In this document: piece after piece, positions 3,685-20,405 of the stretch
Layout: every line of letters begins with the position of its first letter
Numbering within the stretch: the stretch's first letter is position 1
Source: Candidatus Woesearchaeota archaeon
GTDB taxonomy: Archaea > Nanobdellota > Nanobdellia > Pacearchaeales > GW2011-AR1
NCBI GenBank assembly: GCA_964503975.1
Contig: CAZDCI010000009.1
Span: 1-24,000, forward strand
DNA: 24,000 bases
Direction: 5' to 3'
Position numbers and translations under genes: made by a program
Notes under the pieces: model-generated
What the model was told of the DNA's origin: nothing
What the model saw: only the letters and a program-made list of their open reading frames with translations
The model's database searches: none

Positions 3685-4995
3685 ATGAATGATATGATAA
3701 CATATGTAAATGATTTTGTGAAGAGTATAAGACCTCATGAAACAATTGCTTCCTTTGTAAGAGAAAAAACAAAAAACTCTTCTATTGGTGAGGGCAGACC
3801 TTCCGAATATTTTTACTTGAGAGAGCTTTGTAATCCCATACAAAGTTATTACACACGTATAGGAAAAAGTATTCCTCCTTCTCTTGAATCTAAGAAAAAA
3901 ATGGCTTATGGAAATAAATTACATAGGTTAGCAAATATTTGGTTTAGAGATATTCCAGGATATATTGTAGATGAAGGTGTCGTAGATGGGGCATTGGTAA
4001 ATGTGAAAGGAGTCAGAGGAAAAATAGATGCTCTTATGGGGGAAAATATTTTGGAAATTAAAACGAAAGAAAATCTTCCTGGAAAAGATCCTTCTGAAAT
4101 AATTGAAAACTATCTACAAGACGTAGAACAACTTGTTTTTTACTCTGTGTTGTATAAAAAACCAAAAGAAATAAATTATTTAATTTTTATCTCTCAAAAA
4201 CATCCTCACGATCTTCTTTCTTTCAAAATAAAAGTAAAAAACCCTCATTTAATAAAAGAAGTAATAAGAAGCCGTATAAAGAGATTGGAAAAGGCTATTG
4301 GGGACAAAAATCCTTCTTCTCTACCAAAATGTAAGTATCATGAAGTAGGCTGCCATTTAAAGGATCTTTGCTCTTGTGAAGATCTAAAAGATTTTGCTGA
4401 TAAAAAAGTTCTTGAAAATATAGAAATTTTTTATGATGGAGAATTTAGTGAAAAATTAAGGAAATTTAAAGAAAATTCGCAAGGTTTTCTTAAAGAAGAG
4501 GATGTTTTTACCACTCATGATATTCTTTTTCCTAGGAATTACAGGGTAGAAGAAGAATATGCTCCTGATGAAGAAAAGGATCAACTCAAAAATTATCTTG
4601 AAGGTTTAGTAAGAAAAATACATGAATTCAGGATACTTCCTTCTGGAAATGAATTTATTAAAAAATCTCTAAAAGAACCCAAAATGGCAATAAAGCACCG
4701 GTGGATAAGAATTCCTTCTTCAAACACTAAAACAGATTATTTTCCTTACATTGTAACTATGAATAAAACAGGTTCTGCGAGGCCCCACGAATATCATACT
4801 GCTGCTCTGGGACTTATCTGTGCATTATATGGAAAAAATAAAGGGGTGATTTTTGAAATCACTCCTGACGAGAAAATTAGAGTTTTTGATGTGGAATATA
4901 GAAATACTTCAAAAATTCTAAATAGAATCAAAGAAATTATAAAAAACATTCAGGAAGAGAAAATAGAAGAGTTGCCTCCGAACCATTGGAATTAA
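3685..4995 (+). CDS. Cas4/RecB-like PD-(D/E)XK nuclease with Fe-S cysteines, followed by about 200 aa of uncharacterised C-terminal extension
   Basis: N-terminal Cys context YLRELCNPIQSYY. GNKLH. D-x(n)-E-x-K core GKIDALMGENILEIKTK. QxxxY motif EQLVFYSVLY. C-terminal cysteine cluster CKYHEVGCHLKDLCSC. No cas1/cas2 genes or CRISPR array are present in the window. Confidence 0.65.
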   Translation: MNDMITYVNDFVKSIRPHETIASFVREKTKNSSIGEGRPSEYFYLRELCNPIQSYYTRIGKSIPPSLESKKKMAYGNKLHRLANIWFRDIPGYIVDEGVVDGALVNVKGVRGKIDALMGENILEIKTKENLPGKDPSEIIENYLQDVEQLVFYSVLYKKPKEINYLIFISQKHPHDLLSFKIKVKNPHLIKEVIRSRIKRLEKAIGDKNPSSLPKCKYHEVGCHLKDLCSCEDLKDFADKKVLENIEIFYDGEFSEKLRKFKENSQGFLKEEDVFTTHDILFPRNYRVEEEYAPDEEKDQLKNYLEGLVRKIHEFRILPSGNEFIKKSLKEPKMAIKHRWIRIPSSNTKTDYFPYIVTMNKTGSARPHEYHTAALGLICALYGKNKGVIFEITPDEKIRVFDVEYRNTSKILNRIKEIIKNIQEEKIEELPPNHWN

Positions 4996-5059
4996 AAATG
5001 AAAAAACCAATTAAACACAAATCACCTTATTGGGATATGGAGAGGAAGAGGAAACAATA

Positions 5060-5377
5060 ATGGAAAAAATAACTCAGGAAGAACTCGAAGAACTTAGAGA
5101 ATTTTTTAACGAGGAATTTTGGCCTAAAATGAAAAACGAGTTAAAAGATATGTCAAAAAAAGAAGCCTGTTTTTCTTGTTTTCTTGCAGGGTCGGATATG
5201 ATGAGATACTCTATAGAAAAAGAATTTGTAGAGACAGAAAAGATGATTTCAAAAATGAGTGAAGAAGAAATTATAAAAACCATCCGCGAGGGAAATGAAA
5301 ACACTCTTTGGGAAGATAAAACCAAAATAAATGGGGTTTGGGTTGACGATAAAACAGGAAAGGTTTTGGAGGAGTGA
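5060..5377 (+). CDS. Small acidic hypothetical protein
   Basis: The ORF track starts at a TTG at 5030. An ATG at 5060 preceded by a purine-rich ggagaggaagagga is the more plausible start. The sequence is E-rich and helical-looking. Confidence 0.45.
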   Translation: MEKITQEELEELREFFNEEFWPKMKNELKDMSKKEACFSCFLAGSDMMRYSIEKEFVETEKMISKMSEEEIIKTIREGNENTLWEDKTKINGVWVDDKTGKVLEE

Positions 5378-5399
5378 CATATCTCATGAGCCGATACAC

Positions 5400-5430
5400 A
5401 TACCCTCTATACTAACATCATATAGGGTAT
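5400..5430. promoter_or_regulatory. Imperfect inverted repeat (ataccctctata-N9-tatagggtat) upstream of the 5497 wHTH gene
   Basis: Read directly. The arms match except for one extra C in the left arm. It lies within an AT-rich, TATA-like region about 70 nt upstream of the ATG. Confidence 0.35.
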
Positions 5431-5496
5431 ATACAAATATTTATAAACATATATACATTGTTTCTTGCATGAAAGGAAAATGGAGGAGTTTTTATC

Positions 5497-6567
5497 ATGG
5501 CGGCAAAGCAAATTAGAAAAACATCTCAAAAAATTAAAGATAAAATTCTTTCTCAACTTAAGGAAGGGCCGTTTTCCATAAAAAGGTTAAGTGAAAAAAT
5601 AGGTTCTAACTGGTCTACTGTTAAAGAGTATTTGAAAGAATTGGAAGATGAAGGGAAGGTTAGAGAAATGACTTCTTTGGACAGCGGAAGATACTACGTG
5701 AGATCGGATTATCCGACTTTTTACGGGCTTCCTTTAGATAGTGAAAAACTTAAAAAATCATTATATCTGCTTTCAAAAATCACTGAAAGATGGAATGTTC
5801 ATAAAAAAAATGAAGGGCCCATAGCAAAAACACCCTTACAAAAAATTGCTGTTGATTTAATACAAAAAAATAAGCTTGACATTCCAGTGGTTAGGTTTCA
5901 TTATGGAAAAGTCTTGGTTACTCGTTTTGAGCCTGAAAAATCTCAAGAAATAATCTCCATATATGGATATACTGATGTTGAAATATCGGATAGGGAAATA
6001 GATAAAGAAATAAGAAACAGGTCTAATCTTGCTTGGAAAGAAAAAAAGAAACAGTATGAAACCCATCCTGACATGAAGATATTTAATTTGAGCGATGAAA
6101 TTTATTATACTCTTTCTAAAAATAAGACAAGTAACCCTGAGAAAATTTTAGATATGTTCTATGAATTGTTGTTAGAATTTCCTGTACAGAAAGAATATTC
6201 TATTTTATTCTCTAAGTATTATGACCTTTTAGGTGCAATAAAGTTAATCTCCAACTCCGAAGAATTTGGGGATAAAGAAAATAGAAGGAATTTTCTAAAA
6301 GAAATTTTAGAAACTTTTGATTCTATATGGCAAGCGCTAACTACTGAATTCTTTTTTCAAGATGTAAAGCCTTTCATAAGCAAAGAATTTGTGGATTTAT
6401 TTGAATTTATTAAGGAATCAAAAACCCAATCTTATTATGTTGAAGTTGAGGAAAGACTGAACAATCTTCTTGACTACAAGATGTCCCTTGCAATAAAAGA
6501 AATCAAACTAGATGAAACTGAGGAAAAAATGCTTAATATATTTCTGGAAGGTGCAGATGAAGAATGA
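5497..6567 (+). CDS. wHTH DNA-binding protein with a large uncharacterised C-terminal region
   Basis: The N-terminal segment KDKILSQLKEGPFSIKRLSEKIGSNWSTVKEYLKELEDEGKVRE is a wHTH. A GGAGGAG motif sits 8 nt upstream of the ATG. The stop overlaps the next gene (ATGA). Confidence 0.6.
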   Translation: MAAKQIRKTSQKIKDKILSQLKEGPFSIKRLSEKIGSNWSTVKEYLKELEDEGKVREMTSLDSGRYYVRSDYPTFYGLPLDSEKLKKSLYLLSKITERWNVHKKNEGPIAKTPLQKIAVDLIQKNKLDIPVVRFHYGKVLVTRFEPEKSQEIISIYGYTDVEISDREIDKEIRNRSNLAWKEKKKQYETHPDMKIFNLSDEIYYTLSKNKTSNPEKILDMFYELLLEFPVQKEYSILFSKYYDLLGAIKLISNSEEFGDKENRRNFLKEILETFDSIWQALTTEFFFQDVKPFISKEFVDLFEFIKESKTQSYYVEVEERLNNLLDYKMSLAIKEIKLDETEEKMLNIFLEGADEE

Positions 6568-7214
6568 GATGGTTTTTGGATATGAACATAGTTCTATTTT
6601 ATGCTGGAGAAGGCAACAGGTCTGATTTAGAAAAAAAGACTAAAAAATTTGTCTTGGAAAAAAACGACGGAAAATTCCTATTATGTTATTACATAAGAGA
6701 TGTGGATTTGCCCAAATGGCTTGACAGGCAAAAAATTATTTTAAAAGAAATAGTTAGAAAATTTAAAGATGATTCTTATAATCTTTATAGTTCTCAAGAG
6801 TCTTCCAAGCTTACTGATAGGGACAAAAAGAAATTAATTAAATTTATAGTTTTGGCTAAAAATCTTTCTGATTCCGATGAAAAAATTGAGAAAATCACAA
6901 AAGCATTTTCGGAGCTAGAAAGGAGGATAAACAAATTCCTCCAGGATTTTATTGATGAATTCGTTATTCCTATTAATGGAATAGATAAAGAACTTGTTTC
7001 TCATCTGAATAGCTTTATTGGTTTAGGCGAATCCAGGCTAAATATTTCAGATGTAAAAACACTAGCTTCCAGCATACAAGAACATAATAATAAAAAACTT
7101 ACATTGATTACTGCAGACAGAAAAGATTGGACAAAAGATTTTTTAGAAGAAGTGCAATATCATTATTCATTAAAAAAGAAGTATCCTTCACTTCCAAAAA
7201 TACAATATCTTTAA
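6564..7214 (+). CDS. PIN-like nuclease domain protein with a long internal insertion
   Basis: The N-terminal FLDMNIVLFY and the C-terminal ISDVKTLASS...LTLITADRKDW resemble the first and last acidic PIN motifs (hhDTN..., sD..ha.a...lhT.D.dF). The middle roughly 130 aa are unassigned. Confidence 0.45.
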   Translation: MRWFLDMNIVLFYAGEGNRSDLEKKTKKFVLEKNDGKFLLCYYIRDVDLPKWLDRQKIILKEIVRKFKDDSYNLYSSQESSKLTDRDKKKLIKFIVLAKNLSDSDEKIEKITKAFSELERRINKFLQDFIDEFVIPINGIDKELVSHLNSFIGLGESRLNISDVKTLASSIQEHNNKKLTLITADRKDWTKDFLEEVQYHYSLKKKYPSLPKIQYL

Positions 7215-7311: not shown

Positions 7312-7605
7312 ATGAAAAAACCCCTAATAATCTCAATAATAATCCTCGTGCTTTTAATACTCGGAGTACTTGCGTTTTTTATAATAACTGGAAGTAATGG
7401 GGAAGAAACAAGCGCTAACAATTCTGATATTGGAGAAGGAGACGCGCCCGCATATATTTGTGGAAACGACCATTATAATTGTGAAGATTTCGAGACTCAA
7501 TTTGAGGCCCAAAAGGCTTACAATACTTGCTTTTCTTTAGGCTTCGGAGACATTCATGGTTTGGACAACGACGGCGATGGAGAGGTTTGTGAGGGGTTGA
7601 GTTAA
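7312..7605 (+). CDS. Membrane-anchored or secreted Excalibur calcium-binding domain protein
   Basis: N-terminal hydrophobic helix [25 protein letters not shown]-terminal [16 protein letters not shown]...[16 protein letters not shown] matches the DxDxDGxxCE Excalibur motif. Confidence 0.75.
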
Positions 7606-7606
7606 G

Positions 7607-8125
7607 ATGGAAAAAGTAATTCTTGTAGATGAAAATAATAATGAGATAGGGGAAGAAGAAAAAATAAAAGCTCACAAAGAAGGTAAACTTCACAGAGCTT
7701 TCTCTATCTTTGTTTTTAATTCTAAAAGAAAATTGCTACTCCAACAAAGAGCAAAAACGAAATATCACTCAGGAGGATTTTGGTCTAATACTGTTTGCGG
7801 ACATCCAAGACCTAATGAAAATTATCAGCAAGCAACACACAGAAGGCTCAAAGAAGAAATGGGTTTTGATTGTGAATTGGAAAAATTATTTTGTTTTATA
7901 TATAAGACAGATTTTAAAAATGGGTTGATTGAAAATGAATATGGTTGTGTTTTTATCGGAAAGTTTGATGGGAATCCTATACCTGACCCTGAAGAAGCCA
8001 TAGATTATAAATGGATTTCTTTAGAAGATTTGAAAAAAGATATTGAGAAAAATCCTGAGAAATATACAGAATGGTTAAAGATAATCTTAAAAAGAATAAA
8101 GCTTTCTAAAATTGAGAGGAAATAA
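7607..8125 (+). CDS. idi: Isopentenyl-diphosphate delta-isomerase, type 1 (Nudix fold)
   Basis: Collinear with E. coli Idi as I recall it: LHRAFSIFVFN, LLLQQRA..K, WSNTVCGHP, RRLKEEMGF, ENEYGCVF, and a DYKW...L tail. Confidence 0.88.
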   Translation: MEKVILVDENNNEIGEEEKIKAHKEGKLHRAFSIFVFNSKRKLLLQQRAKTKYHSGGFWSNTVCGHPRPNENYQQATHRRLKEEMGFDCELEKLFCFIYKTDFKNGLIENEYGCVFIGKFDGNPIPDPEEAIDYKWISLEDLKKDIEKNPEKYTEWLKIILKRIKLSKIERK

Positions 8126-8462: not shown

Positions 8463-9188
8463 ATGGTTCAGGAATATTCAGTAAAAAATAAAGAATTTCT
8501 TAAGAATAGGACATACTATGAAAAAATACCGAAACATGTTCTTCTTTTGCCTGATGGTGGGAGAAGATTTGGTTATAAAAGAAAATTAAGTGACATGGAA
8601 ATTTATGACATTGGACAAAAAATCTGTCAAGATTTTGTAGAAGTTTGCTTAAATGAATTTCAAATGAAACTTGCCACAATCTTCTTCTTAAGACCTTCTT
8701 CTTTTAATATGCAAAGAAGAACTGAAGGCAATCTTAAGGCAATTTTAATCGCAATAAATAAATTTGCGAAAAATCTTTTAGAGGGTAAAACAGAAATTGA
8801 TTTATCAAAGGTAGGAGTAGATACAATATCTTTGGCGGGTGAAGAATGGATGGCTAAACCTTCCAGAATAAAAGAATCGGAAGAACTTTCAAAGCTATGG
8901 GAGGGTTTAAAAGCAACTATGACAAAATTAAAAGAAAAGGGCAGGAAAAAACAAAATATAATATTCTTATTAAATTATTCTGGGAAAAAGGAATTGGATA
9001 AAGATTTGAAAAATGGGAAAATTCAAATTCCTGAACAAATTGGTTTAGCCATCAGAACAGGAGATGGGATGCGATTGAGTGATTGTCCTTTGTATGCCTT
9101 ATCTCATACTCATTTTTGCTTAATTAAAAAATTCTTGCCGGAAGTTACAAAAGAAGATTTTAGGAATTCTATCTCAAAATATTATTAA
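8463..9188 (+). CDS. Divergent cis-prenyltransferase (UppS/DHDDS fold)
   Basis: Collinear with UppS motifs: KHVLLLPDGGRRFG (vs HVAIIMDGNGRWA), PSSFNMQRR (vs FSSENWNRP), NYSGKKEL (vs NYGGRWDI), IRTGDGMRLSD (vs IRTGGEHRISN). Several catalytic positions are substituted. Confidence 0.7.
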   Translation: MVQEYSVKNKEFLKNRTYYEKIPKHVLLLPDGGRRFGYKRKLSDMEIYDIGQKICQDFVEVCLNEFQMKLATIFFLRPSSFNMQRRTEGNLKAILIAINKFAKNLLEGKTEIDLSKVGVDTISLAGEEWMAKPSRIKESEELSKLWEGLKATMTKLKEKGRKKQNIIFLLNYSGKKELDKDLKNGKIQIPEQIGLAIRTGDGMRLSDCPLYALSHTHFCLIKKFLPEVTKEDFRNSISKYY

Positions 9189-9272: not shown

Positions 9273-10217
9273 TCATACGACTTGTTCTAGACTTTTGGCT
9301 TTTAACATGAATAAATAATCTAACAATGGGGAGCCAAAATATAAGTTCCCTCTTCTCCTTCTAAATAAAGCGTGCATTTTGTCAGAATCCTCAAGGTGTT
9401 GTAATTGTTCTCTTGAAGGTGTTTCCCCTAAGTTTCTTAGAGATAAAAGGTTTAAGGATGCTTCAAGTGAGTTTTTTGGTTTTAAAATGTGCGCTTTTTC
9501 TTTAACTCTGTCAATAGTCTCCCCATCAAAATACCCTTTAACTTTTTGAATTGTTGAGAAAGGATATGAAAAAGAGCTTCTGTACAGATAGTACCTAGAC
9601 ACATCTTCAATTGGTTTGTCAAACAAATCCGAATTCACAAACCTTTCCAGTGTTTTTGCTAATAAATGTTCGTTTTTAGTATCTCTACAAAGGGCCAGTG
9701 TCTGAAGAGCATTCACATTTACTACAAAATCTATTGAGTTTCCACCGCCCCTGTTCATAAACGTTGGAAGGATGGTTTCTCCCTCGGAAACCCATACACC
9801 ATAATATTTCGCAAGGTTAGAGTAATTTCTTTTTAATTCTCCCGACGAATCTCTATTACTTATTACTAAGGCCCTTACAGCTACCGCTGTGTCATCAAAA
9901 TCAGGAGGGTATTGAAAATCATTAAAAGGTGGGACAAACCTCCACACTTGAAAACCTTCATATTTCTCCCCTAAATTTAACAACGCCTTCTTGGCCAGTT
10001 CCGCTCTTTTTTGTATTAAGGGTTCGTCAAAACCATAAAGTTGTTCTAGGATAAGGGAATGGATGAAAGGGCTTTCTATGTTTCCTTCGGGTTTAATTTC
10101 TAAATTCCCCGACGGATGTGTGGAATAGTAACTTCTAAAAAGGCCACCCTCTGACTGGTTTTCTTCTATAAGTCGTCTAAGCTTTCTTTGATCTACCATA
10201 TAAATTTCCCAAAGCAT
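9273..10217 (-). CDS. Squalene-hopene-cyclase-like class II terpene cyclase homologue, single alpha/alpha-toroid domain (314 aa)
   Basis: GFQVWRFVPPFNDFQYPPDFDDTAVAVRAL aligns with Alicyclobacillus SHC GGFAFQFDNVYYPDVDDTAVVVWAL, which contains the catalytic DxDDTA. Upstream, SPFIHSLILEQL resembles SPVWDTGLAVLAL. The start could instead be the second Met (MVDQRK). Confidence 0.6.
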   Translation of the reverse strand: MLWEIYMVDQRKLRRLIEENQSEGGLFRSYYSTHPSGNLEIKPEGNIESPFIHSLILEQLYGFDEPLIQKRAELAKKALLNLGEKYEGFQVWRFVPPFNDFQYPPDFDDTAVAVRALVISNRDSSGELKRNYSNLAKYYGVWVSEGETILPTFMNRGGGNSIDFVVNVNALQTLALCRDTKNEHLLAKTLERFVNSDLFDKPIEDVSRYYLYRSSFSYPFSTIQKVKGYFDGETIDRVKEKAHILKPKNSLEASLNLLSLRNLGETPSREQLQHLEDSDKMHALFRRRRGNLYFGSPLLDYLFMLKAKSLEQVV

Positions 10218-10257
10218 AAACTTTTAAAGCTAAGTTGTTAGTTAAACTTACAACAAA

Positions 10258-10971
10258 ATGGAACTATTAAATAAACTTGGGAAAGCTGGTTTAACGGGGA
10301 ATGAAGCTAAACTTTATCTTGGATTGTTGAAAAAAGGTCAATGTTCTGCAAATGAATTATCTAAGCTTGCGAGCATGGACAGAACATTAACTTATCAGGT
10401 ATTAGACAATCTTAAAGAAAAAGGGCTTGTTTCTTACATTATTAAAAACAATAAAAAATATTTCAAAGCTTCTGCACCGAAAACATTACTTAATCCTGTG
10501 AAAGAGAAAGAGAGATTTGTTGGCTCTCTTGTTTCTGAACTGGAAAATGTTGAAAAAACTGAAAAAACAGACCAGGAAATCAGGGTTTACGAAGGAAAAC
10601 ATGGTCTAAAGGTATTTTTTGAAGAGATAATAAGTAAAAAAGGTGTTTTAATTTTTGGTGCTACTGGTAAAAGTTACGATATCCTAAAGTTTGAGTTGCC
10701 TCACTTAATTGAAAAGGCTAAAAAGTTAGGTATGAAAGGAAAAATGATTACAAGTAAAAAACTGAAAGGTCATGAAATGACTAAAATATCTGGATTGGAA
10801 ATACGTTATCTTGAAGAAGTCGGAAGCCCTTCTACAACGACTATTTATGGGAATAAGGTGGGTATACATGTTCCTACTGATAAGCCCACAATAATCATCA
10901 TTAGAAACAAGGACATCGCTCAAAGTTACAGGGAATATTTTGATGTTCTGTGGTGTGCTGCAAAAAAATAA
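10258..10971 (+). CDS. TrmB-family transcriptional regulator
   Basis: The N-terminal LGKAGLTGNEAKLYLGLLKKGQCSANELSKLASMDRTLTYQVLDNLKEKGLV is the TrmB wHTH signature. A coiled linker and C-terminal effector-like domain follow. Confidence 0.8.
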   Translation: MELLNKLGKAGLTGNEAKLYLGLLKKGQCSANELSKLASMDRTLTYQVLDNLKEKGLVSYIIKNNKKYFKASAPKTLLNPVKEKERFVGSLVSELENVEKTEKTDQEIRVYEGKHGLKVFFEEIISKKGVLIFGATGKSYDILKFELPHLIEKAKKLGMKGKMITSKKLKGHEMTKISGLEIRYLEEVGSPSTTTIYGNKVGIHVPTDKPTIIIIRNKDIAQSYREYFDVLWCAAKK

Positions 10972-11031: not shown

Positions 11032-11982
11032 ATGAAACACTTAACTAAAAAAGAGTTGAAAATTTTAAGTGAAAGGTATTGTTTAGATAAAATAAAAAGT
11101 TGGAAATATCTAAAATCCGGGAGAATTAATTATCTTTTTGAAATCAAAACAAGGAAAAATGTTTATATTGTTAAAAAACTGGGTTACGGCTTGGGAAGCT
11201 GGCAAATGAATAAAAAAGGTATGGAGTTTGGAGTCCTTGACCATTTAACAAAAAAAGAGTACCCTTATCGCACACCGAATTTTTTGAAAAATAAATATGG
11301 AAATAGGGTTTCTAAAATAGGTAAAAATCACTTTGAGGTATATGAAAAAATTCCTGGAAAAACAATTAAAGATTTAGGTGAAAAACAATTAAAAAAACTG
11401 GTTAAAGCCATAGCCCTTTACCATGAAGCTGTTAGAGATTACAAAATACCTAAAAAATTTTCATGGGTTGACGACTTTTCTTGGATGAAAAGCCCCTACA
11501 AAAAATTAAAAAAAGTAAAACCTAAAACAAAAACAGATTGCTTAGTGGTGGACAATTTGGATTTTTTTGAAAGATTATTTGAAGAATTGTTAAAGACAAA
11601 TATTGTGGAAGATCCTTTAATGACTCATGGGGATTTCAACAAAGAGAACTTACTTTGGGAAGATGATGGATTAATTGGGATTCTTGATTTTGAAAACATC
11701 TCTTACAGGCCAAAGCTTTTTGATTTGGCTTATGTTTGGAAAGGCGATAAAAAACAGAGAAAAATAATCCTTAGTGAATATAAAAAGCACGGCACATTGT
11801 CAAAAAAAGAGGAAGAAAATTTGATTGTATTCAGACTTTTTCAGTATTGTAGCCAGTTTTGGTGGAGATATCTTGGATTAGAAAAACGGCCCGATTTAAA
11901 ATACAAGGACCTTTCAAGAGCAATAAAGAAAGCAAAAAAACTTGCAAAAGCCTGGGAAAAAAGCTTCAAATGTTTGCCTTAA
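11032..11982 (+). CDS. Aminoglycoside/choline-kinase-family (APH fold) small-molecule kinase
   Basis: The catalytic loop HGDFNKENLLW (HxDxxxxN) and metal-binding IGILDFENISY are characteristic of the phosphotransferase enzyme family. Confidence 0.75.
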   Translation: MKHLTKKELKILSERYCLDKIKSWKYLKSGRINYLFEIKTRKNVYIVKKLGYGLGSWQMNKKGMEFGVLDHLTKKEYPYRTPNFLKNKYGNRVSKIGKNHFEVYEKIPGKTIKDLGEKQLKKLVKAIALYHEAVRDYKIPKKFSWVDDFSWMKSPYKKLKKVKPKTKTDCLVVDNLDFFERLFEELLKTNIVEDPLMTHGDFNKENLLWEDDGLIGILDFENISYRPKLFDLAYVWKGDKKQRKIILSEYKKHGTLSKKEEENLIVFRLFQYCSQFWWRYLGLEKRPDLKYKDLSRAIKKAKKLAKAWEKSFKCLP

Positions 11983-12108: not shown

Positions 12109-12378
12109 ATGGATAATAGAGATTATTTTGCGTTGGGATTTGAAATGGGGAGAAATTTAGGAATGTCTGAAGGAAACAGAGAGCCAACAGCTTCAGATTT
12201 AGAGGATTTAAAATATAGTATTCTAAGAGAACCGGGAGAAGAGGTAGCATTTCACTACCTTCCGGGCAAACATTCAAATATGGAATGGTTTGAGATTATT
12301 AAAATGCCTGAAGGAGAAGGTAATTTTAGAGTTGGAAAAATAAATTCTGACGGAGCAGGGTTTAGAGGGATTCATTAA
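12109..12378 (+). CDS. Hypothetical protein
   Basis: 89-aa ORF with balanced composition. It is followed 1 nt later by the next ORF, suggesting co-transcription. Confidence 0.4.
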   Translation: MDNRDYFALGFEMGRNLGMSEGNREPTASDLEDLKYSILREPGEEVAFHYLPGKHSNMEWFEIIKMPEGEGNFRVGKINSDGAGFRGIH

Positions 12379-12379
12379 A

Positions 12380-12664
12380 ATGGATGAAGGATACAAAGAT
12401 TTCTTGAGAGAAGCCGCTTATTTTGGTTTGAATTCTGAAGAAAGGTTCATGGCAGATAATTTTTATGAAAGAATAAAAGATAAGTCTCCGGAAGTTATTG
12501 AAAGATATGAAAGAAGATTCTTGACTCCAAAAAACTTTTTTGGAAAATTAATGTTTTATTTTAATCAAAAGGCCAGGGTTAAATCTCATGCTGTATCAAA
12601 ATTTAAAACGGAAAATTTTATCAGGAACCAGGAAAGGAGAACGAGTGAAGCAAAAGAAATTTAA
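12380..12664 (+). CDS. Hypothetical protein
   Basis: 94-aa ORF tightly coupled to 12109-12378. No recognisable motif. Confidence 0.4.
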   Translation: MDEGYKDFLREAAYFGLNSEERFMADNFYERIKDKSPEVIERYERRFLTPKNFFGKLMFYFNQKARVKSHAVSKFKTENFIRNQERRTSEAKEI

Positions 12665-15524: not shown

Positions 15525-15794
15525 TTAGTAGTTATGTTGTTTATAGGCTTTGTAAGCTTCTTTGGTTAGCTGCCATCTGACCCTTCTAGAGTATTCAATC
15601 CCTTTAGGGTTTTTGCGCACGTCTTTGACGAGAAACTTTTTTTTCAAATCCAAAAGAAGTTTTTTTGTAAATTCTTCGTCTCTTGCTATTTCTTGAGCTA
15701 TGTGAGAAGTGAATTTTGTTTGGGGAGATACTGAAAAAAGGTACGCAAGAATCTGTTCGTATATCTTCTCTTTTTTTTTGTCTGAAATGCGCAT
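15525..15794 (-). CDS. Small winged-helix DNA-binding protein
   Basis: 89 aa. FTSHIAQEIARDEEFTKKLLLDLKKKFLVKDV followed by the wing KGIEYSRRVRWQLT is a wHTH layout. Confidence 0.55.
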   Translation of the reverse strand: MRISDKKKEKIYEQILAYLFSVSPQTKFTSHIAQEIARDEEFTKKLLLDLKKKFLVKDVRKNPKGIEYSRRVRWQLTKEAYKAYKQHNY

Positions 15795-15846
15795 TAAAAG
15801 AAGAGGTTATTTGATTTTAAAATACTTACTGACTTACCTATCATTG

Positions 15847-16251
15847 TTATTTCTTTTTGAAAGAAGGCATAGGAATATGGAAGGGTAAATTAAGTTCGTC
15901 TTCAAGTTCAAGGGCTTTAAGTGAAGATTTTTTAAGAATGATATTGAAAACCGATAACCTGAATTCTTCTGAAAGTTTTTTCTTCTTCCAGTCTTTGAGG
16001 ATTTGTTTGGCTTTTTTTTGTTCTGTCTGAAAGATTATTGCTCCTTCTATTTTAATTTTAGCAAAATCGGGTTTATAATCTACATTATAAACAAAACGCA
16101 CCTCAAGAACTTCGTCTTTCCCTTTGAAAAGATCCGTATCTAATTTCTTTATGTTTGAAACGTCCATTTCAGTATTTATTTTTAAATCCTTGCCTTTGCT
16201 TTCTAATTTTTCTGCGCTGATTTTATTGAAATTAAACCCTATTGCTTTCAT
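15847..16251 (-). CDS. Hypothetical protein
   Basis: 134-aa ORF with balanced composition, on the same strand as its neighbours. No motif that I can name with confidence. Confidence 0.45.
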   Translation of the reverse strand: MKAIGFNFNKISAEKLESKGKDLKINTEMDVSNIKKLDTDLFKGKDEVLEVRFVYNVDYKPDFAKIKIEGAIIFQTEQKKAKQILKDWKKKKLSEEFRLSVFNIILKKSSLKALELEDELNLPFHIPMPSFKKK

Positions 16252-16668: not shown

Positions 16669-16976
16669 GAAACCCCCTCACCCCTGCGTTTCGTCTGGAA
16701 AGGTTTTTAAACGGTTTTTAAATTTTTTATTTTTATTTTTTATTTATAAATTTTTATATTATATATTATATATATTATAAATTAAAATAGTAAGTAAAAG
16801 TAATCAAAAAGTTTTTTAGAAAAAAGAAGAGAAGCAAAAAAAGTGGACTTTTCCATCCGAAATAAAGGTGTTTTTCTTTTTTAGTAGTCATAATCTTTTA
16901 TATAATCAAACCATTTTGTCTCGTTAGTGTTTGGCAGCTAAGTAAGAAGTTCCATCCGAAATAAAGGTGTGGGGTT
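16669..16976. other. Chromosomal replication origin (oriC): inverted ORB boxes flanking an AT-rich unwinding element
   Basis: Left box at 16669-16703 on the minus sense (reverse complement TTCCAGACGAAACGCAGGGGTGAGGGGGTTTC). Almost pure A/T stretch at about 16704-16810. Two identical 21-nt boxes ttccatccgaaataaaggtgt at 16851-16871 and 16950-16970, the second followed by a GGGG string. Lies immediately upstream of cdc6/orc1. Confidence 0.85.
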
Positions 16977-16999
16977 TTAACGTTTTTGGAAAAAGTAAA

Positions 17000-18211
17000 A
17001 TGAAATCAGATTTAGACAAGATATTTGAAAACTTTGACGGGAACAGGATCTTTAAAAACAAGTCTATTTTACAAACAAACCACAAACCAGAGGAAATTCT
17101 TCATAGAAGCGAACAAATAAAACAAATGGCCTCAATCCTCGCGCCCGTTTTAAGGGGCGAAAGGACAAGCAACTTGTTTCTTTACGGAAAAACAGGAACA
17201 GGAAAAACGCTTTCTATCTCACACATAAAGGAAGAGCTTTTGAAAAGGAAGAAAAAAGAATCCGGATTTAAACTAAAAATAGAGTACCTTAATTGTAAGC
17301 TTCGCAAAATTTCAGACACGGAATACCGGATTCTTGCGGAACTCATAAGGAAGCTGGGAGGAAGCGTCCCGGAAACAGGGCTTCCAACAGAAACCGTTTA
17401 CAACAGGTTTATTGAATTAATCGACTCTGAGAAACAGTTTTTAGTTTTAATTCTTGATGAAATAGACCAGGCCGTTAAAAAAATTTCTAGCGACTTTCTT
17501 TATAATCTTACACGCTTAAACTCAGAGTTAGCAAAAACCCAGATAGCTATTGTGGGAATAAGCAATGATTTAACTTTTCTTGATGGTTTGGATCCGAGGG
17601 TAAGAAGTTCTTTGTCTGAAGAAGAGGTGGTTTTTCCACCTTACAATGCCTTACAGCTTCAAGAAATTTTAAGTAAGAGGTCGGAGAGCGCCTTCAAAGA
17701 AAACGTTTTAGAAGAAGGGGTGGTTTCAAAATGTGCTGCCTTTGCCGCGCGAGAACACGGGGATGCGAGAAGAGCCCTTGATTTGTTAAGGATTGCAGGA
17801 GAGCTAGCCGAAAGAGATGGAAACAAAAAAATACTTTTGAAATATATAGATGAAGCAAACACAAAAATAGAAAGGGATAAAATTTTAGATGTGATACGTA
17901 CCGAACCAAAACAATTCCAATATGTTTTACATTCAATAATAGGCTTACTAGAAAAAAACAATGGAGAACCGGTCTTTACAGGAGATGTTTATAATTTATA
18001 TCAGGAGGTTTGTTTGAGAAACAAAGAGTCCCCGCTAACCCAAAGGCGAGTAGGAGATATAATACAAGAGTTTGATATGCTTGGGATAATTAATGTAAGG
18101 GTTGTTTCAAAAGGAAGGGGTGGAAGGATGAGGGAAATAAAGCTAGCCATAGCAAAATCTGTTGTAGAAAAAGCGAAAGAAATAATAAAAGAATCAATAA
18201 CATATAAATGA
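17000..18211 (+). CDS. cdc6: Cdc6/Orc1 replication initiator
   Basis: Walker A LYGKTGTGKT, Walker B LVLILDEID, sensor 2 GDARRALDLLR, and a C-terminal winged helix. The track start at 16967 is a GTG inside the ORB box, so the ATG at 17000 (MKSDLDKIF) is preferred. Confidence 0.92.
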   Translation: MKSDLDKIFENFDGNRIFKNKSILQTNHKPEEILHRSEQIKQMASILAPVLRGERTSNLFLYGKTGTGKTLSISHIKEELLKRKKKESGFKLKIEYLNCKLRKISDTEYRILAELIRKLGGSVPETGLPTETVYNRFIELIDSEKQFLVLILDEIDQAVKKISSDFLYNLTRLNSELAKTQIAIVGISNDLTFLDGLDPRVRSSLSEEEVVFPPYNALQLQEILSKRSESAFKENVLEEGVVSKCAAFAAREHGDARRALDLLRIAGELAERDGNKKILLKYIDEANTKIERDKILDVIRTEPKQFQYVLHSIIGLLEKNNGEPVFTGDVYNLYQEVCLRNKESPLTQRRVGDIIQEFDMLGIINVRVVSKGRGGRMREIKLAIAKSVVEKAKEIIKESITYK

Positions 18212-18232: not shown

Positions 18233-19801
18233 ATGGACCAAAAAGAAATTCTTAATCTTTGTTTGAAAGAAGGTGTTCTGTTAGATTCTGAAATACTTAA
18301 TTTATTTAGTGAGGAAAGCGAAGACCTTGAAGCAGTTAAATTAGTTTTGGAAAAAATAAAACAACATACCTCTGCAAGAGTTATCACTAAAAGTGTTCTG
18401 AAGGAACACAAAGAAGAAACGAACCGGGTTTTCACTACACTACCAGAAGACAAACAAAAAAAACTTGAGAAATTGAAGATAAAACTTGGTTTGCAGATAG
18501 AAATTTCTAAAGAAGTCATGTCTAAAGAAGCAGACAGGAGAAAAAATGAGACGGATGAAACATTTGTTAAGGTTCTTTCTAAACCACCCCTGACTAAAGA
18601 AAAAATTGAAGTGGGACATTTTATAAAAACCATGAGAGATAGGTTTTTGAGACTGAAAAACATCCTTCAGGAAAGACACGGGCTTGATGATTTAATTTCT
18701 ATAAACCGCCTGTCAAACCAAAGAAAAAAGGTTTCTATTTTAGGAATGGTTTCTGACAAAAGAACAACTAAAAACAAAAACTTGCTTCTTGAAGTTGAAG
18801 ATTTGACCGGAAGAGTGAGGATTTTAATAAACAACAATAAACCAGAGCTGTTTGAGCAAGGAGAAGAACTTCCTTTGGATGCTGTTGTGGGGTTTAGCGG
18901 GTTTGGGGACAGAGAAATACTTTTTGCGAATAAAGTGGTTTTACCTGAAGCCCGTTTGCATGAAAGAAAAAAAAGCCCCGCAGATGAAGCAGTTTTATTC
19001 ATTGGAGATTTGCATTTTGGAAGCAAACTTTTTATGAAAGAAAATTTCATGAAGTTTATAGATTATCTTAACGGGAAAACGAATGCACCCAAGGAGGAAG
19101 TGGAGAATATAAAGTATTTGTTTATTGTAGGGGACGCAATTTCTGGTGTCGGGGTTTATCCCGGACAGGACAAGGATTTGGAGACAATAGATATAGAAGA
19201 ACAGTATCAAAAGCTTGCGGAAATTTTAGGGAAGATACGTAAAGACATAAAGATAATTATTTCTCCCGGGAATCATGATGGGGTTCGTTTGATGGAACCC
19301 CAACCAATGCTTGATGAAAAATATGCGTGGCCCCTTTATAATATGGAAAATGTTATCCTCACAGCAAACCCCTCATACGTAAACATTGGTGCAAAAAAAG
19401 AAAAAAACTTTGAAGGCTTCAATGTTTTAACCTATCATGGTTTCTCTTATCCTTATTACGGGAATAACATCCCTTCCTTGGTTTCTTCCGGTTTTAACGC
19501 CCCCGAAAAAATAATGACATATCTTTTAAAGCACCGTCATTTGGCTCCGAGTTTCGGTTCAAATCAAACCCTGCCTTTAGGAAAAGATAACATGATTATA
19601 GACAAGATACCTGATGTTTTAGTTTCGGGACACTCACACAAATGCGCGATTACACACCATAATAATATATTAATTGTATCCGGAAGCTCGTGGGAAGAAG
19701 AAAGCGAGTATCAAAAACGCAAGGGAAACCAGCCTGACTTTTGCAAGGTACCGATGCTCAATTTAAAAACACGGGAGGTAAAACTTTTGGATTTTGAGTG
19801 A
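18233..19801 (+). CDS. polB: DNA polymerase II (family D) small subunit DP1
   Basis: Calcineurin-like phosphoesterase motifs GDLHFGS, GDAISG, GNHD and GHSH, with an N-terminal helical domain. Located between cdc6 and DP2, as in Euryarchaeota. Confidence 0.92.
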   Translation: MDQKEILNLCLKEGVLLDSEILNLFSEESEDLEAVKLVLEKIKQHTSARVITKSVLKEHKEETNRVFTTLPEDKQKKLEKLKIKLGLQIEISKEVMSKEADRRKNETDETFVKVLSKPPLTKEKIEVGHFIKTMRDRFLRLKNILQERHGLDDLISINRLSNQRKKVSILGMVSDKRTTKNKNLLLEVEDLTGRVRILINNNKPELFEQGEELPLDAVVGFSGFGDREILFANKVVLPEARLHERKKSPADEAVLFIGDLHFGSKLFMKENFMKFIDYLNGKTNAPKEEVENIKYLFIVGDAISGVGVYPGQDKDLETIDIEEQYQKLAEILGKIRKDIKIIISPGNHDGVRLMEPQPMLDEKYAWPLYNMENVILTANPSYVNIGAKKEKNFEGFNVLTYHGFSYPYYGNNIPSLVSSGFNAPEKIMTYLLKHRHLAPSFGSNQTLPLGKDNMIIDKIPDVLVSGHSHKCAITHHNNILIVSGSSWEEESEYQKRKGNQPDFCKVPMLNLKTREVKLLDFE

Positions 19802-19802
19802 A

Positions 19803-20405
19803 ATGGAAGTAAAAACTAAATCAATAGAAGCAGGAGAAAATAACATAGGAATAGAAATCATGAATTTTGTAGAAAAAGAATCTTTTAGACGAGATAAAGG
19901 GTTTCATAAGGAATGGATGAAACATTTAAGAGATGTGGCTGAAAATTCTTTGGAGATGGCTGAAAAACTAAATGCAGACAAAGAGGCACTCTTTTTATCT
20001 GCTTGGCTACATGATGTAGGGAATATTTTTTATCACAGGAAGGAAGACCACCACATAACGGGAGCTAAGATAGCAGAGAAGAAACTAAGAGAACTGGGTT
20101 ATCCTGAAGAAAAAGTACAGGAAGTGAAACATTGTATTTATAGTCACAGGGCCTCAAAAAAAATTCTCCGGGAGAGCAAAGAAGCACAAATTCTTGCTGA
20201 CGCAGATTCCTTGGCACACTTCGTAGAGTATGAGATGCTTGTTAAAGCAGAACATGTTTTAGGACACGAACGGGATGAGGAAAAAGCAAGAAAGAATGTA
20301 GAGGCGAAGATGGTTCGTTCTTGGAATCGTTTATCTGATGAAGGAAAAAACTTCGCCAAAGAAAAATATCCTAAAATATTAAACAGGCTAGAGATATTAA
20401 AATGA
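19803..20405 (+). CDS. HD-domain phosphohydrolase
   Basis: AWLHDVGN (HD motif) plus downstream His/Asp residues (HCIYSH, DADSLAH). ATG at 19803, 2 nt after the DP1 stop. The stop overlaps the DP2 start (ATGA). Confidence 0.8.
   Translation: MEVKTKSIEAGENNIGIEIMNFVEKESFRRDKGFHKEWMKHLRDVAENSLEMAEKLNADKEALFLSAWLHDVGNIFYHRKEDHHITGAKIAEKKLRELGYPEEKVQEVKHCIYSHRASKKILRESKEAQILADADSLAHFVEYEMLVKAEHVLGHERDEEKARKNVEAKMVRSWNRLSDEGKNFAKEKYPKILNRLEILK

Follow-up and report, generated by a model that had tools for sequence, protein, structure and literature searches.

A stand-alone TC-beta protein of the class II terpene cyclase superfamily, probably an active cyclase, beside a TrmB-like regulator in a Woesearchaeota archaeon

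The window considered here is a stretch of 24,000 nt from Candidatus Woesearchaeota archaeon (GCA_964503975.1, contig CAZDCI010000009.1, positions 1-24,000 of the forward strand), whose minus strand carries at 9273-10217 a gene for a small protein with the acid motif of class II terpene cyclases. As judged from profile comparison and predicted fold, the protein is a free-standing beta domain (TC-beta) of this superfamily, nearest to the drimenol synthases in which such a domain is fused to a HAD phosphatase. Fold, homology, and catalytic and pocket residues are conserved, the gene evolves under purifying selection, and it is accompanied in archaea by a conserved regulator gene and a conserved palindromic operator candidate. 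It is considered probable, with some room left for other readings, that the product of the gene is a free-standing and catalytically competent class II terpene cyclase of the TC-beta type, which works and is regulated as proposed below.

The gene and its reading frame

The open reading frame runs without interruption and yields 314 residues counted from Met1. An intact frame of this length with a DxDDTA-type motif had been reported in a preliminary description of this DNA, and the motif, DFDDTA, is indeed read from codons 9885-9902 of the minus strand, within QYPPDFDDTAVAVRAL and the wider string PPDFDDTA. The true start is probably Met7 (codon 10197-10199), which gives 308 residues, because the codon of Met1 (10215-10217) lies only 4 nt past a conserved TATA-like element and because the start codons of the orthologs align with Met7. 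The features of the gene are as follows.

9273-10217, minus strand: coding sequence of the predicted stand-alone TC-beta class II terpene cyclase (314-codon open reading frame, family alignment, model, and ratio of nonsynonymous to synonymous substitution rates, dN/dS)
9885-9902, minus strand: putative class II general-acid motif DFDDTA (D106-x-D108-D109-T-A; from the translation and a map anchored on the family hidden Markov model, HMM)
9588-9599, minus strand: S207-R208-Y209-Y210, which maps onto AsDMS R415/Y416/Y417 (from the translation)
9351-9362, minus strand: R286-R289 (RRRR), a basic hairpin at the predicted pocket mouth, followed by the conserved NLYFGS (from the translation, alignment, and model)

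Purifying selection acts on the gene, with a dN/dS of 0.18 at a synonymous rate (dS) of 0.78 between the orthologs of loci L001 and L004. Comparison of orthologs with the window gene gives 0.13-0.20, in pairs in which dS is saturated.

Family membership and homology

A word-indexed search of 5.8 billion proteins returned just two relatives of the cyclase, at ~53% identity, and searches of this kind gave 2-5 relatives. The family, which is a rare one, came out with 18 proteins when a HMMER profile was run exhaustively against 1.84 billion cluster representatives. The resulting 18-sequence family alignment (A2) has members 20-53% identical to the window cyclase, and full-length homologs are all 274-362 residues long. 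When all PDB sequences are searched with the A2 profile, its positions 43-313 match residues 269-523 of AsDMS, the C-terminal TC-beta domain (9MHS, 9M7D), with an E-value of 1.3e-25; fungal AstC follows at about 8e-12. A profile of the six closest archaeal sequences aligns by hhalign with the AsDMS TC-beta domain over 237 columns (probability 92.6%, E 4.5e-7). Squalene-hopene cyclase (SHC) is reached at E 0.19 and along the motif stretch only (positions 94-115 on SHC residues 368-389), and the monodomain cyclase MstE is not matched among PDB sequences even at E <= 10. A search of the PDB with the single cyclase sequence returned nothing meaningful, only spurious armadillo-repeat matches.

Pfam assignments were obtained for more distant members. 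SQHop_cyclase_C is matched by three of them, and P0012 has a precomputed match to the newer Pfam family PF28380 (AstC-like_C), for which the window cyclase has no precomputed match. Seeding a search with P0012 added ten further stand-alone proteins of 280-348 residues, eight of which carry PF28380 and no second domain; the sole one with a source name is labeled “hypothetical protein.” In scans of GTDB genomes, profile A5 found one “uncultured archaeon” locus (L013) and profile A1 found no cyclase relatives; a scan of JGI metagenomes found none either. A Pfam scan for a HAD domain in the cyclase gave none, and the profile alignment opens at query residue 43 against AsDMS residue 269. An upstream HAD domain is excluded at the locus, since the divergent regulator gene begins 40 bp away and leaves no coding space.

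Three groups appear in a neighbor-joining tree of the trimmed MAFFT alignment, which was built without support values and is indicative only. The first is an archaeal-type clade on its own deep branch that holds every member with a TrmB-like neighbor. The second comprises the PF28380-positive stand-alone bacterial proteins, with the beta domains from AsDMS and AstC branching alongside, and the third comprises proteins of P450/glycosyltransferase clusters that have the motif DxDS.

Predicted structure

The AlphaFold2 model, calculated from the 18-sequence alignment, has a predicted local distance difference test score (pLDDT) of 91.3 and a predicted template modeling score of 0.91. It takes on a single complete (alpha/alpha)6 barrel of 12 main helices linked by short beta-hairpins, one of which, at 282-295, has a pLDDT of ~92. 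The helix count is consistent with the beta domain of AsDMS, which has been described as a “12 alpha-helix bundle” (PMC12232559). Both the model and the family-wide length of 274-362 residues bear out the earlier view that the protein has room for one alpha/alpha toroid only. A Foldseek search of the PDB with this model gave the matches below, in order of rank (template modeling scores, TM, are normalized to the query).

Ranks 1-10, AsDMS chains: E 6.5e-10 to 3e-9, TM 0.72-0.77
Next, 8PAK and 8PAJ (~345 residues, deposited as “squalene-hopene cyclase”) and 6IJ1: E 3.7e-6 to 2.2e-5, TM 0.63-0.66
Next, MstE 6SBB-G: E 1.6e-4 to 1.1e-3, TM 0.64-0.67
Next, SHC 3SQC: E 8.5e-4, TM 0.58
Next, Tpn2 and SsDMS: E ~1e-3, TM 0.52-0.56
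Below these, (alpha/alpha)6 glycosidases and epimerases: E >= 1e-3, TM 0.37-0.63

Except for 6ij1, an unannotated Actinoplanes protein, the best 22 PDB matches are all class II cyclases. Superposition on SHC, which the preliminary description had proposed, does reveal a shared beta-domain fold (TM 0.58), and AsDMS is the better match at 0.77. The resemblance to SHC is real at the motif but confined to it at the sequence level (E 0.19), with SHC a distant relative; the identity of a “mini” SHC gives way to that of an AsDMS/AstC TC-beta domain, the nearest relative by both sequence and fold.

Active site and motif conservation

For the comparison of single residues, AsDMS 269-523 was rebuilt from the HMMER output, with residue identities that agree with the published numbering, and aligned onto the family HMM. 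AsDMS residues follow the PNAS numbering; the Chem Sci numbers are higher by 10 and are added in brackets for the two aspartates. The equivalent residues of the window cyclase and their conservation in the family are listed below.

AsDMS D321 (D331), catalytic: D106, invariant
AsDMS D323 (D333), general acid: D108, invariant
AsDMS T324, motif position: D109, D in 14 of 18, otherwise N, T, or S
AsDMS Y417, hydrogen-bond partner of the general acid: Y210, nearly invariant
AsDMS F308, cation-pi: F94, F or W
AsDMS F318, cation-pi: Y103, mostly Y or F
AsDMS F499, cation-pi: F285, F or Y
AsDMS F508, cation-pi: F294, F or Y
AsDMS R415, phosphate binding: R208, mostly K or R
AsDMS Y416, phosphate binding, essential: Y209, Y or F
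AsDMS R503, phosphate binding: R289, mostly R or K
AsDMS Y363, phosphate binding, essential: F153, F, Y, or W
AsDMS R368, phosphate binding: G159, variable
AsDMS R370, phosphate binding: S161, variable

Just five columns of A2 are invariant. Two of them are D106 and D108 of the PPDxDDT motif, so the motif is not a coincidental similarity, a concern raised when it was first noticed. S207 and S296 are likewise invariant, and W92, T152, and Y210 nearly so. When family and reference sequences are taken together, the first aspartate of the motif is kept in all 33 and the middle position is an aspartate in 31; the exceptions are P0026 (Glu) and the AstC fragment (Asn). The asparagine, which comes from the sequence of a PDB entry, is probably an engineered mutation by analogy to the D333N crystal form of AsDMS. 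PDxD(D/S/T)T is found in nearly all family sequences. The AsDMS variants D331A, D331N, D333N, and Y427F are inactive (PMC12365925; PMC9128629).

At the mouth of the pocket, Y426 of AsDMS is essential to phosphate recognition; Y373A and Y426A are inactive, and R378A (= R368) loses 96% of the activity (PMC12365925; PMC9128629). A basic residue follows T152-F153 by 2-4 positions in nearly all family members (R156 in the window cyclase), and R286-R288 add conserved positive charge on the pocket-mouth hairpin. Near the N-terminus, a QW-type motif (Q22-x3-G-x-F27) is present and conserved. As far as the alignment indicates, the catalytic machinery is in place together with the greater part of a clamp of Arg and Tyr residues that would hold an anionic head group, the clamp being built somewhat differently from that of AsDMS. 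Substrate binding in AsDMS needs no Mg2+, the head group being held by arginines (PMC12232559, PMC12365925), and by homology Mg2+-independent binding is likely in the archaeal protein too. Squalene is an unlikely substrate: conserved basic and tyrosine residues at the mouth of the pocket coincide with residues that bind the diphosphate in AsDMS.

Regulator, candidate operator, and putative promoter

The short region upstream of the cyclase gene separates it from a divergently transcribed regulator gene and harbors two further elements.

10222-10228, minus strand: TATA-box-like TTTAAAA, 6 nt downstream of the palindrome and 22 nt upstream of the Met7 ATG
10234-10254, strand not applicable: candidate palindromic operator GTTGTAA-N7-TAACAAC (consensus GTTGT(T/A)A-N7-TAACAAC), between the divergent regulator and cyclase genes
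10258-10971, plus strand: TrmB-family regulator of TrmBL2-like architecture, 237 residues (Pfam TrmB 2.4e-13), divergent from the cyclase gene

Archaeal relatives with flanking sequence are found in L001-L003 (P0002), L004 (P0003), L009 (P0004), L010 (P0008, 28% identity), and L013. In every archaeal locus with sufficient flank, a TrmB-family regulator of ~235 residues is divergently paired with the cyclase gene; in L003 the neighboring gene is cut by the contig end and was left unannotated, and in L011 the regulator lies off the contig. The regulators that adjoin the cyclase in L001, L004, L009, L010, and L013 are orthologous, with 45-49% identity, and this gene is the sole conserved neighbor. 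The other genes around the archaeal relatives are unrelated housekeeping genes (MCM, TBP, TFIIE-alpha, eIF-1A, eIF-2-beta, deoxyhypusine synthase, and aminoacyl-tRNA synthetases). The regulator profile spans TrmBL2 from end to end but covers just the N-terminal 130 residues of the sugar-binding TrmB, from which it follows that these regulators are without the sugar-binding domain.

The palindrome has a single match in the 24-kb window, where 0.01 would be expected by chance, and each of the eight archaeal loci (L001-L004, L009, L010, L011, and L013) has one copy of it, placed identically. It is followed in all aligned loci by TTA(G/A)N and then TTTAAA, which by position and consensus is inferred to be an archaeal promoter element. 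Since this noncoding conservation persists while the proteins have diverged to 28-53% identity, the palindrome is predicted to be an operator for the adjoining regulator; it abuts the putative cyclase promoter.

Further genes were seen near the regulator or the cyclase. In L009, a 206-kb archaeal contig, a second, paralogous TrmB-like regulator with 35% identity to that of the window lies ~1.2 kb from the cyclase-linked one (4516-7114). An APH/choline-kinase-family phosphotransferase (11032-11982, plus strand; PF01636, 4.4e-18) is located 61 bp downstream of the window regulator on the same strand and is not beside the regulator in the other archaeal loci. HicA/HicB toxin-antitoxin pairs stand directly beside the cyclase gene in the unrelated loci L004 (3699-4173) and L015 (8510-8945), which is probably a coincidence.

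Proposed mechanism and alternative readings

From these features we infer the cyclase chemistry, the identity of substrate and product, and the direction of regulation. The reaction would start with the entry of an isoprenoid carrying an anionic head group into the central pocket of the 12-helix alpha/alpha barrel. The substrate would most likely be an all-trans prenyl diphosphate, either farnesyl diphosphate (FPP, C15) or geranylgeranyl diphosphate (GGPP, C20). Without any Mg2+, R208, Y209, the R286-R289 hairpin, and a basic residue near R156 would clamp its head group at the pocket mouth. D108, the middle aspartate of DFDD, polarized by Y210 and flanked by D106 and D109, would then protonate the terminal C=C bond, and the ensuing carbocation cascade would be steadied by F94, Y103, F285, and F294. 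A bicyclic prenyl diphosphate of the drimenyl or labdane type would be formed. Because no phosphatase domain is attached, which differs from AsDMS and AstC, the product would remain phosphorylated or be passed to a separate enzyme. The TrmBL2-like regulator would control transcription by way of the GTTGTTA-N7-TAACAAC operator, which borders on the TATA box.

Several observations weigh against this proposal. The cyclase protein alone matches no Pfam or NCBIfam model at E <= 1, and this extends to the SQHop_cyclase profiles that the preliminary description had named as a check. In single-sequence BLASTP the match between AsDMS and the cyclase is weak (E 1e-4) and covers just the C-terminal 160 residues. 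The AsDMS phosphate binders Y363, R368, and R370 are not kept, the alignment placing F153, G159, and S161 at their positions. The C-terminal QW motif (Q..DGGW), which is kept in distant members and in AsDMS, has decayed in the archaeal subgroup (QHLEDSDK here). The isopentenyl-diphosphate isomerase and cis-prenyltransferase-like genes that precede the cyclase in the window (see below) were sought near the homologous archaeal cyclase loci and found at none of them, and the archaeal cyclase genes have neither a phosphatase gene nor any other tailoring gene as a conserved neighbor. TrmB-family regulators, finally, are classically tied to sugar metabolism.

The replacement of the three AsDMS diphosphate residues, together with the conservation of a different basic RRRR hairpin, would suit a class II cyclase whose Arg-rich mouth binds the polar head of an archaeal-specific or meroterpenoid-type substrate, such as geranylgeranylglyceryl phosphate (GGGP), a polyprenyl phosphate, or a head-group-decorated isoprenoid as in MstE. 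The main isoprenoids of an archaeal host would be ether-lipid precursors, and a cis-prenyltransferase-like gene adjoins the cyclase in the window; furthermore, monodomain MstE binds a nondiphosphate hydrophilic head (PMC12365925, PMC12414744). However, R208, Y209, and R289 still agree with the phosphate-binding positions of AsDMS, and a lipid-synthesis gene is never conserved beside the archaeal cyclase genes, so that only a minor share of our confidence goes to this substrate class. A protein that is not a cyclase at all is judged improbable. Its DxDD similarity would then have been kept for a different reason: it could be a carbohydrate-active enzyme or an epimerase of the (alpha/alpha)6 class that works with two aspartates and is controlled by a TrmB that senses sugars, or it could bind prenyl groups or act as a scaffold. 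The naming of the TrmB family after sugar-specific regulators, the weaker fold matches (E ~1e-3, TM 0.55-0.63), which include epimerases and hydrolases of GH76, GH8, and GH88, and the weak Pfam matches of single family members to Pec_lyase, TED_complement, and Glyco_hydro_88 all point that way. Yet in the fold search all glycosidases stand several orders of magnitude behind the class II cyclases, the homology to a proven cyclase domain extends over the whole domain (E 1.3e-25), and the conserved residues are the cyclase set of Asp pair, Tyr partner, and cation-pi aromatics. In addition, the regulator has the TrmBL2 architecture without a sugar-binding domain, and bacterial relatives stand beside a P450 or a polyprenyl synthase. 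The same leading fold matches and profile score speak against the noncatalytic toroid that the preliminary description had itself considered.

The preliminary description had also allowed for a truncated pseudogene. If the protein were left over, decayed or truncated and without function, from a cyclase with two domains of the SHC-like or HAD-fused kind, this would account for half the length of SHC, for the missing Pfam match of the protein alone, and for the decayed C-terminal QW motif. This reading is effectively refuted by relatives of 274-362 residues that align over their full length, by the dN/dS of 0.18, by invariant catalytic residues, by the confident and complete barrel model, and by the conserved promoter, operator, and regulator; a pseudogene or fragment was rejected on the first, second, and fourth of these points.

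Isoprenoid neighbors and bacterial gene clusters

Two genes with a possible relation to isoprenoids precede the cyclase in the window.

7607-8125, plus strand: type-1 (Nudix-type) isopentenyl-diphosphate isomerase, idi (NCBIfam NF002995, 163.9 bits, cutoff 127)
8463-9188, plus strand: highly divergent cis-prenyltransferase-fold protein (Pfam PF01255, 52 bits), tail-to-tail with the cyclase gene

The second protein has cis-prenyltransferases as its best PDB matches (E ~1e-7) and keeps the motifs DGGRRF and RTGDGMRLS around a degenerate central region. The adjacency of both genes to the cyclase in the window is suggestive of a link to the isoprenoid pathway. The tail-to-tail layout of the cis-prenyltransferase-fold gene and the cyclase gene is reminiscent of mycobacteria, in which the class II cyclase Rv3377c is paired with the cis-prenyltransferase-fold enzyme Rv3378c; a conserved idi-cis-prenyltransferase-cyclase operon on this model was rejected as a general feature, since the adjacency is found only in the window. 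Because archaea usually use the type-2 isopentenyl-diphosphate isomerase, horizontal acquisition of the type-1 enzyme is possible. A 97-residue protein (7312-7605, plus strand) has a hydrophobic N-terminal segment and a weak match to the Excalibur calcium-binding domain (E 9e-4).

In bacteria, the surroundings differ. P0021 (from a Verrucomicrobiales metagenome-assembled genome, MAG), P0016, and P0022 are each encoded beside a cytochrome P450 gene, which is directly downstream in P0021 and P0016. All three clusters contain a metallophosphoesterase, and those of P0021 and P0022 additionally contain several EryCIII-like glycosyltransferases and a carbamoyltransferase. This layout fits a terpenoid pathway that cyclizes, dephosphorylates, oxidizes, and glycosylates, in which the separate phosphoesterase may stand in for the fused HAD domain of AsDMS. 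A polyprenyl diphosphate synthase gene directly follows that of P0012.

At the level of loci, L005 (5400-15000), L006, L007, and L008 are bacterial clusters from a Verrucomicrobiales MAG and metagenomes with a stand-alone TC-beta protein (DxDS), a P450, and a metallophosphoesterase; L005, L006, and L008 also hold 2-5 EryCIII-like glycosyltransferases and a carbamoyltransferase. These clusters look suited to terpenoids that are both glycosylated and carbamoylated. P0015 (23% identity) adjoins a radical-SAM/SPASM enzyme: in L015 (4561-8110) it lies downstream of a 541-residue radical-SAM/SPASM protein and an unannotated 310-residue protein, with no obvious fit to terpenoid biosynthesis.

Remaining features of the window

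The window has a G+C content of ~30-38% and is archaeal, because it encodes Cdc6/Orc1, the small subunit of PolD, and a frame of at least 1199 residues resembling the large subunit of PolD. The replication gene block is arranged as follows.

16967-18211, plus strand: Cdc6/Orc1
18233-19801, plus strand: PolD small subunit
19794-20405, plus strand: HD-domain protein
20402 to the window end, plus strand: probable PolD large subunit (open frame of at least 1199 residues that runs past the window edge)

Neither tRNA nor Rfam matches were found across the window. Open reading frames without a Pfam match at E <= 0.01 encode 436, 115, 89, 94, 89, and 134 residues and fall within 3685-4995 (plus), 5030-5377 (plus), 12109-12664 (plus), and 15525-16251 (minus).

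Novelty and implications

Monodomain class II cyclases are already established, and the finding overturns no current understanding. The preliminary description had held that class II cyclases are known only as two-domain proteins, which is incorrect: the structure of MstE, a monodomain class II cyclase, has been solved (PDB 6SBB; PMC12414744), and a lone beta domain is also used by AsDMS (PMC12232559). It was right that the protein is free-standing and archaeal and that the motif, which is under selection, is intact; archaeal homologs of the MstE clade have already been noted, for example in Methanosarcina acetivorans (PMC12414744). Literature searches of incomplete coverage returned no paper on stand-alone AstC-like cyclases, on terpene cyclases in DPANN-type archaea, or on the regulator/operator module. 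What appears to be new are the free-standing relatives of the AsDMS/AstC beta domain, a distinct archaeal clade among them, and the dedicated regulator and operator module of the archaeal cyclase genes. The DMS-1 clade has been reported solely from Actinomycetota, FCB bacteria, and fungi (PMC12414744).

Two points in the evolution of terpenoid cyclases are left open by recent work: whether a monodomain enzyme stood at the root of the superfamily, and how the gamma-less DMS-1 lineage arose. One suggestion is that HAD took the place of the gamma domain, in which case no beta domain would ever have stood alone and exposed to water (PMC12414744); the other has HAD fused to a TC-beta enzyme that had stood alone (PMC12365925). 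The conserved and selected family of AsDMS-like beta domains that stand free in archaea and in uncultivated bacteria is the kind of intermediate that the fusion model requires, and its existence argues against the scenario without a lone beta domain. In a more far-reaching scenario, which we regard as rather unlikely, the archaeal clade would continue the line of free-standing TC-beta enzymes from which fusion to HAD later gave the AsDMS and AstC types, and would cyclize an ether-lipid precursor (GGPP/GGGP) to an isoprenoid new for archaea, switched by the TrmBL2-like repressor and its operator. If true, the lone beta domain would be a viable and possibly the ancestral form of class II cyclases in both prokaryotic domains.

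The family also supplies test proteins for the experiments on a “basal monodomain cyclase” urged in PMC12414744. If small-genome archaea possess a class II cyclase and a regulator dedicated to it, this would imply cyclic terpenoids in organisms without known production, and a soluble, probably Mg-independent cyclase of ~35 kDa would be attractive for biocatalysis.

Comparison with known cyclases

SHC from Alicyclobacillus (1GSZ, 3SQC) shares DxDDTA and its flanks with the window cyclase in nearly identical form, as seen in the SHC stretch quoted in the preliminary description, together with the beta-domain fold at a TM of 0.58. Similarity beyond the motif is not significant (E 0.19). SHC is a beta-gamma didomain protein of 631 residues with its active site at the domain interface, whereas the window cyclase forms one barrel. 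Its substrate squalene has no anionic head, whereas the window cyclase keeps a basic pocket mouth.

The merosterolic acid synthase MstE from Scytonema (6SBB-6SBG), the founding monodomain enzyme of 2020, has the same stand-alone architecture of a beta domain only with ~300-350 residues. An Asp-based protonation motif is common to both, and the folds agree with a TM of 0.64-0.67. However, there is no profile match between them, and the aligned structures share 9-10% of identical residues. MstE for its part has a DxD motif and takes an aryl-carboxylate meroterpenoid as its substrate (PMC12414744).

The stand-alone AstC-like_C proteins of bacteria (for example, P0025 from a Zixibacteria MAG and MCP5516356.1 from a Verrucomicrobiales MAG) belong to the same family, with 280-349 residues, the motif PDxD(D/S)T, and 20-27% identity to the window cyclase; all are annotated as hypothetical. 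They are located in P450/glycosyltransferase/carbamoyltransferase/metallophosphoesterase or polyprenyl synthase contexts and are without the TrmB-like regulator and operator.

The best match by profile and fold is the group of AsDMS from Aquimarina spongiae (PDB 9MHS, 9MLO, 9M7D-F), AstC (22TY, 22TZ), and PF28380. Like AsDMS, the window cyclase has a lone 12-helix beta domain from which the gamma domain is absent. The two acids of DxD and the tyrosine paired with them align, as do the aromatic residues of the pocket and some of the Arg/Tyr residues that clamp the phosphate. Unlike AsDMS and AstC, it has no N-terminal HAD phosphatase and begins where the AsDMS beta domain begins. Its motif is DxDDTA instead of the DxDTT of AsDMS, and R368, R370, and Y363 of AsDMS are replaced in it, an RRRR hairpin being present instead. 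In contrast to both AsDMS and AstC, the window cyclase is archaeal, has a dedicated TrmB-like regulator, and stands on a deep branch of its own in the rough neighbor-joining tree.

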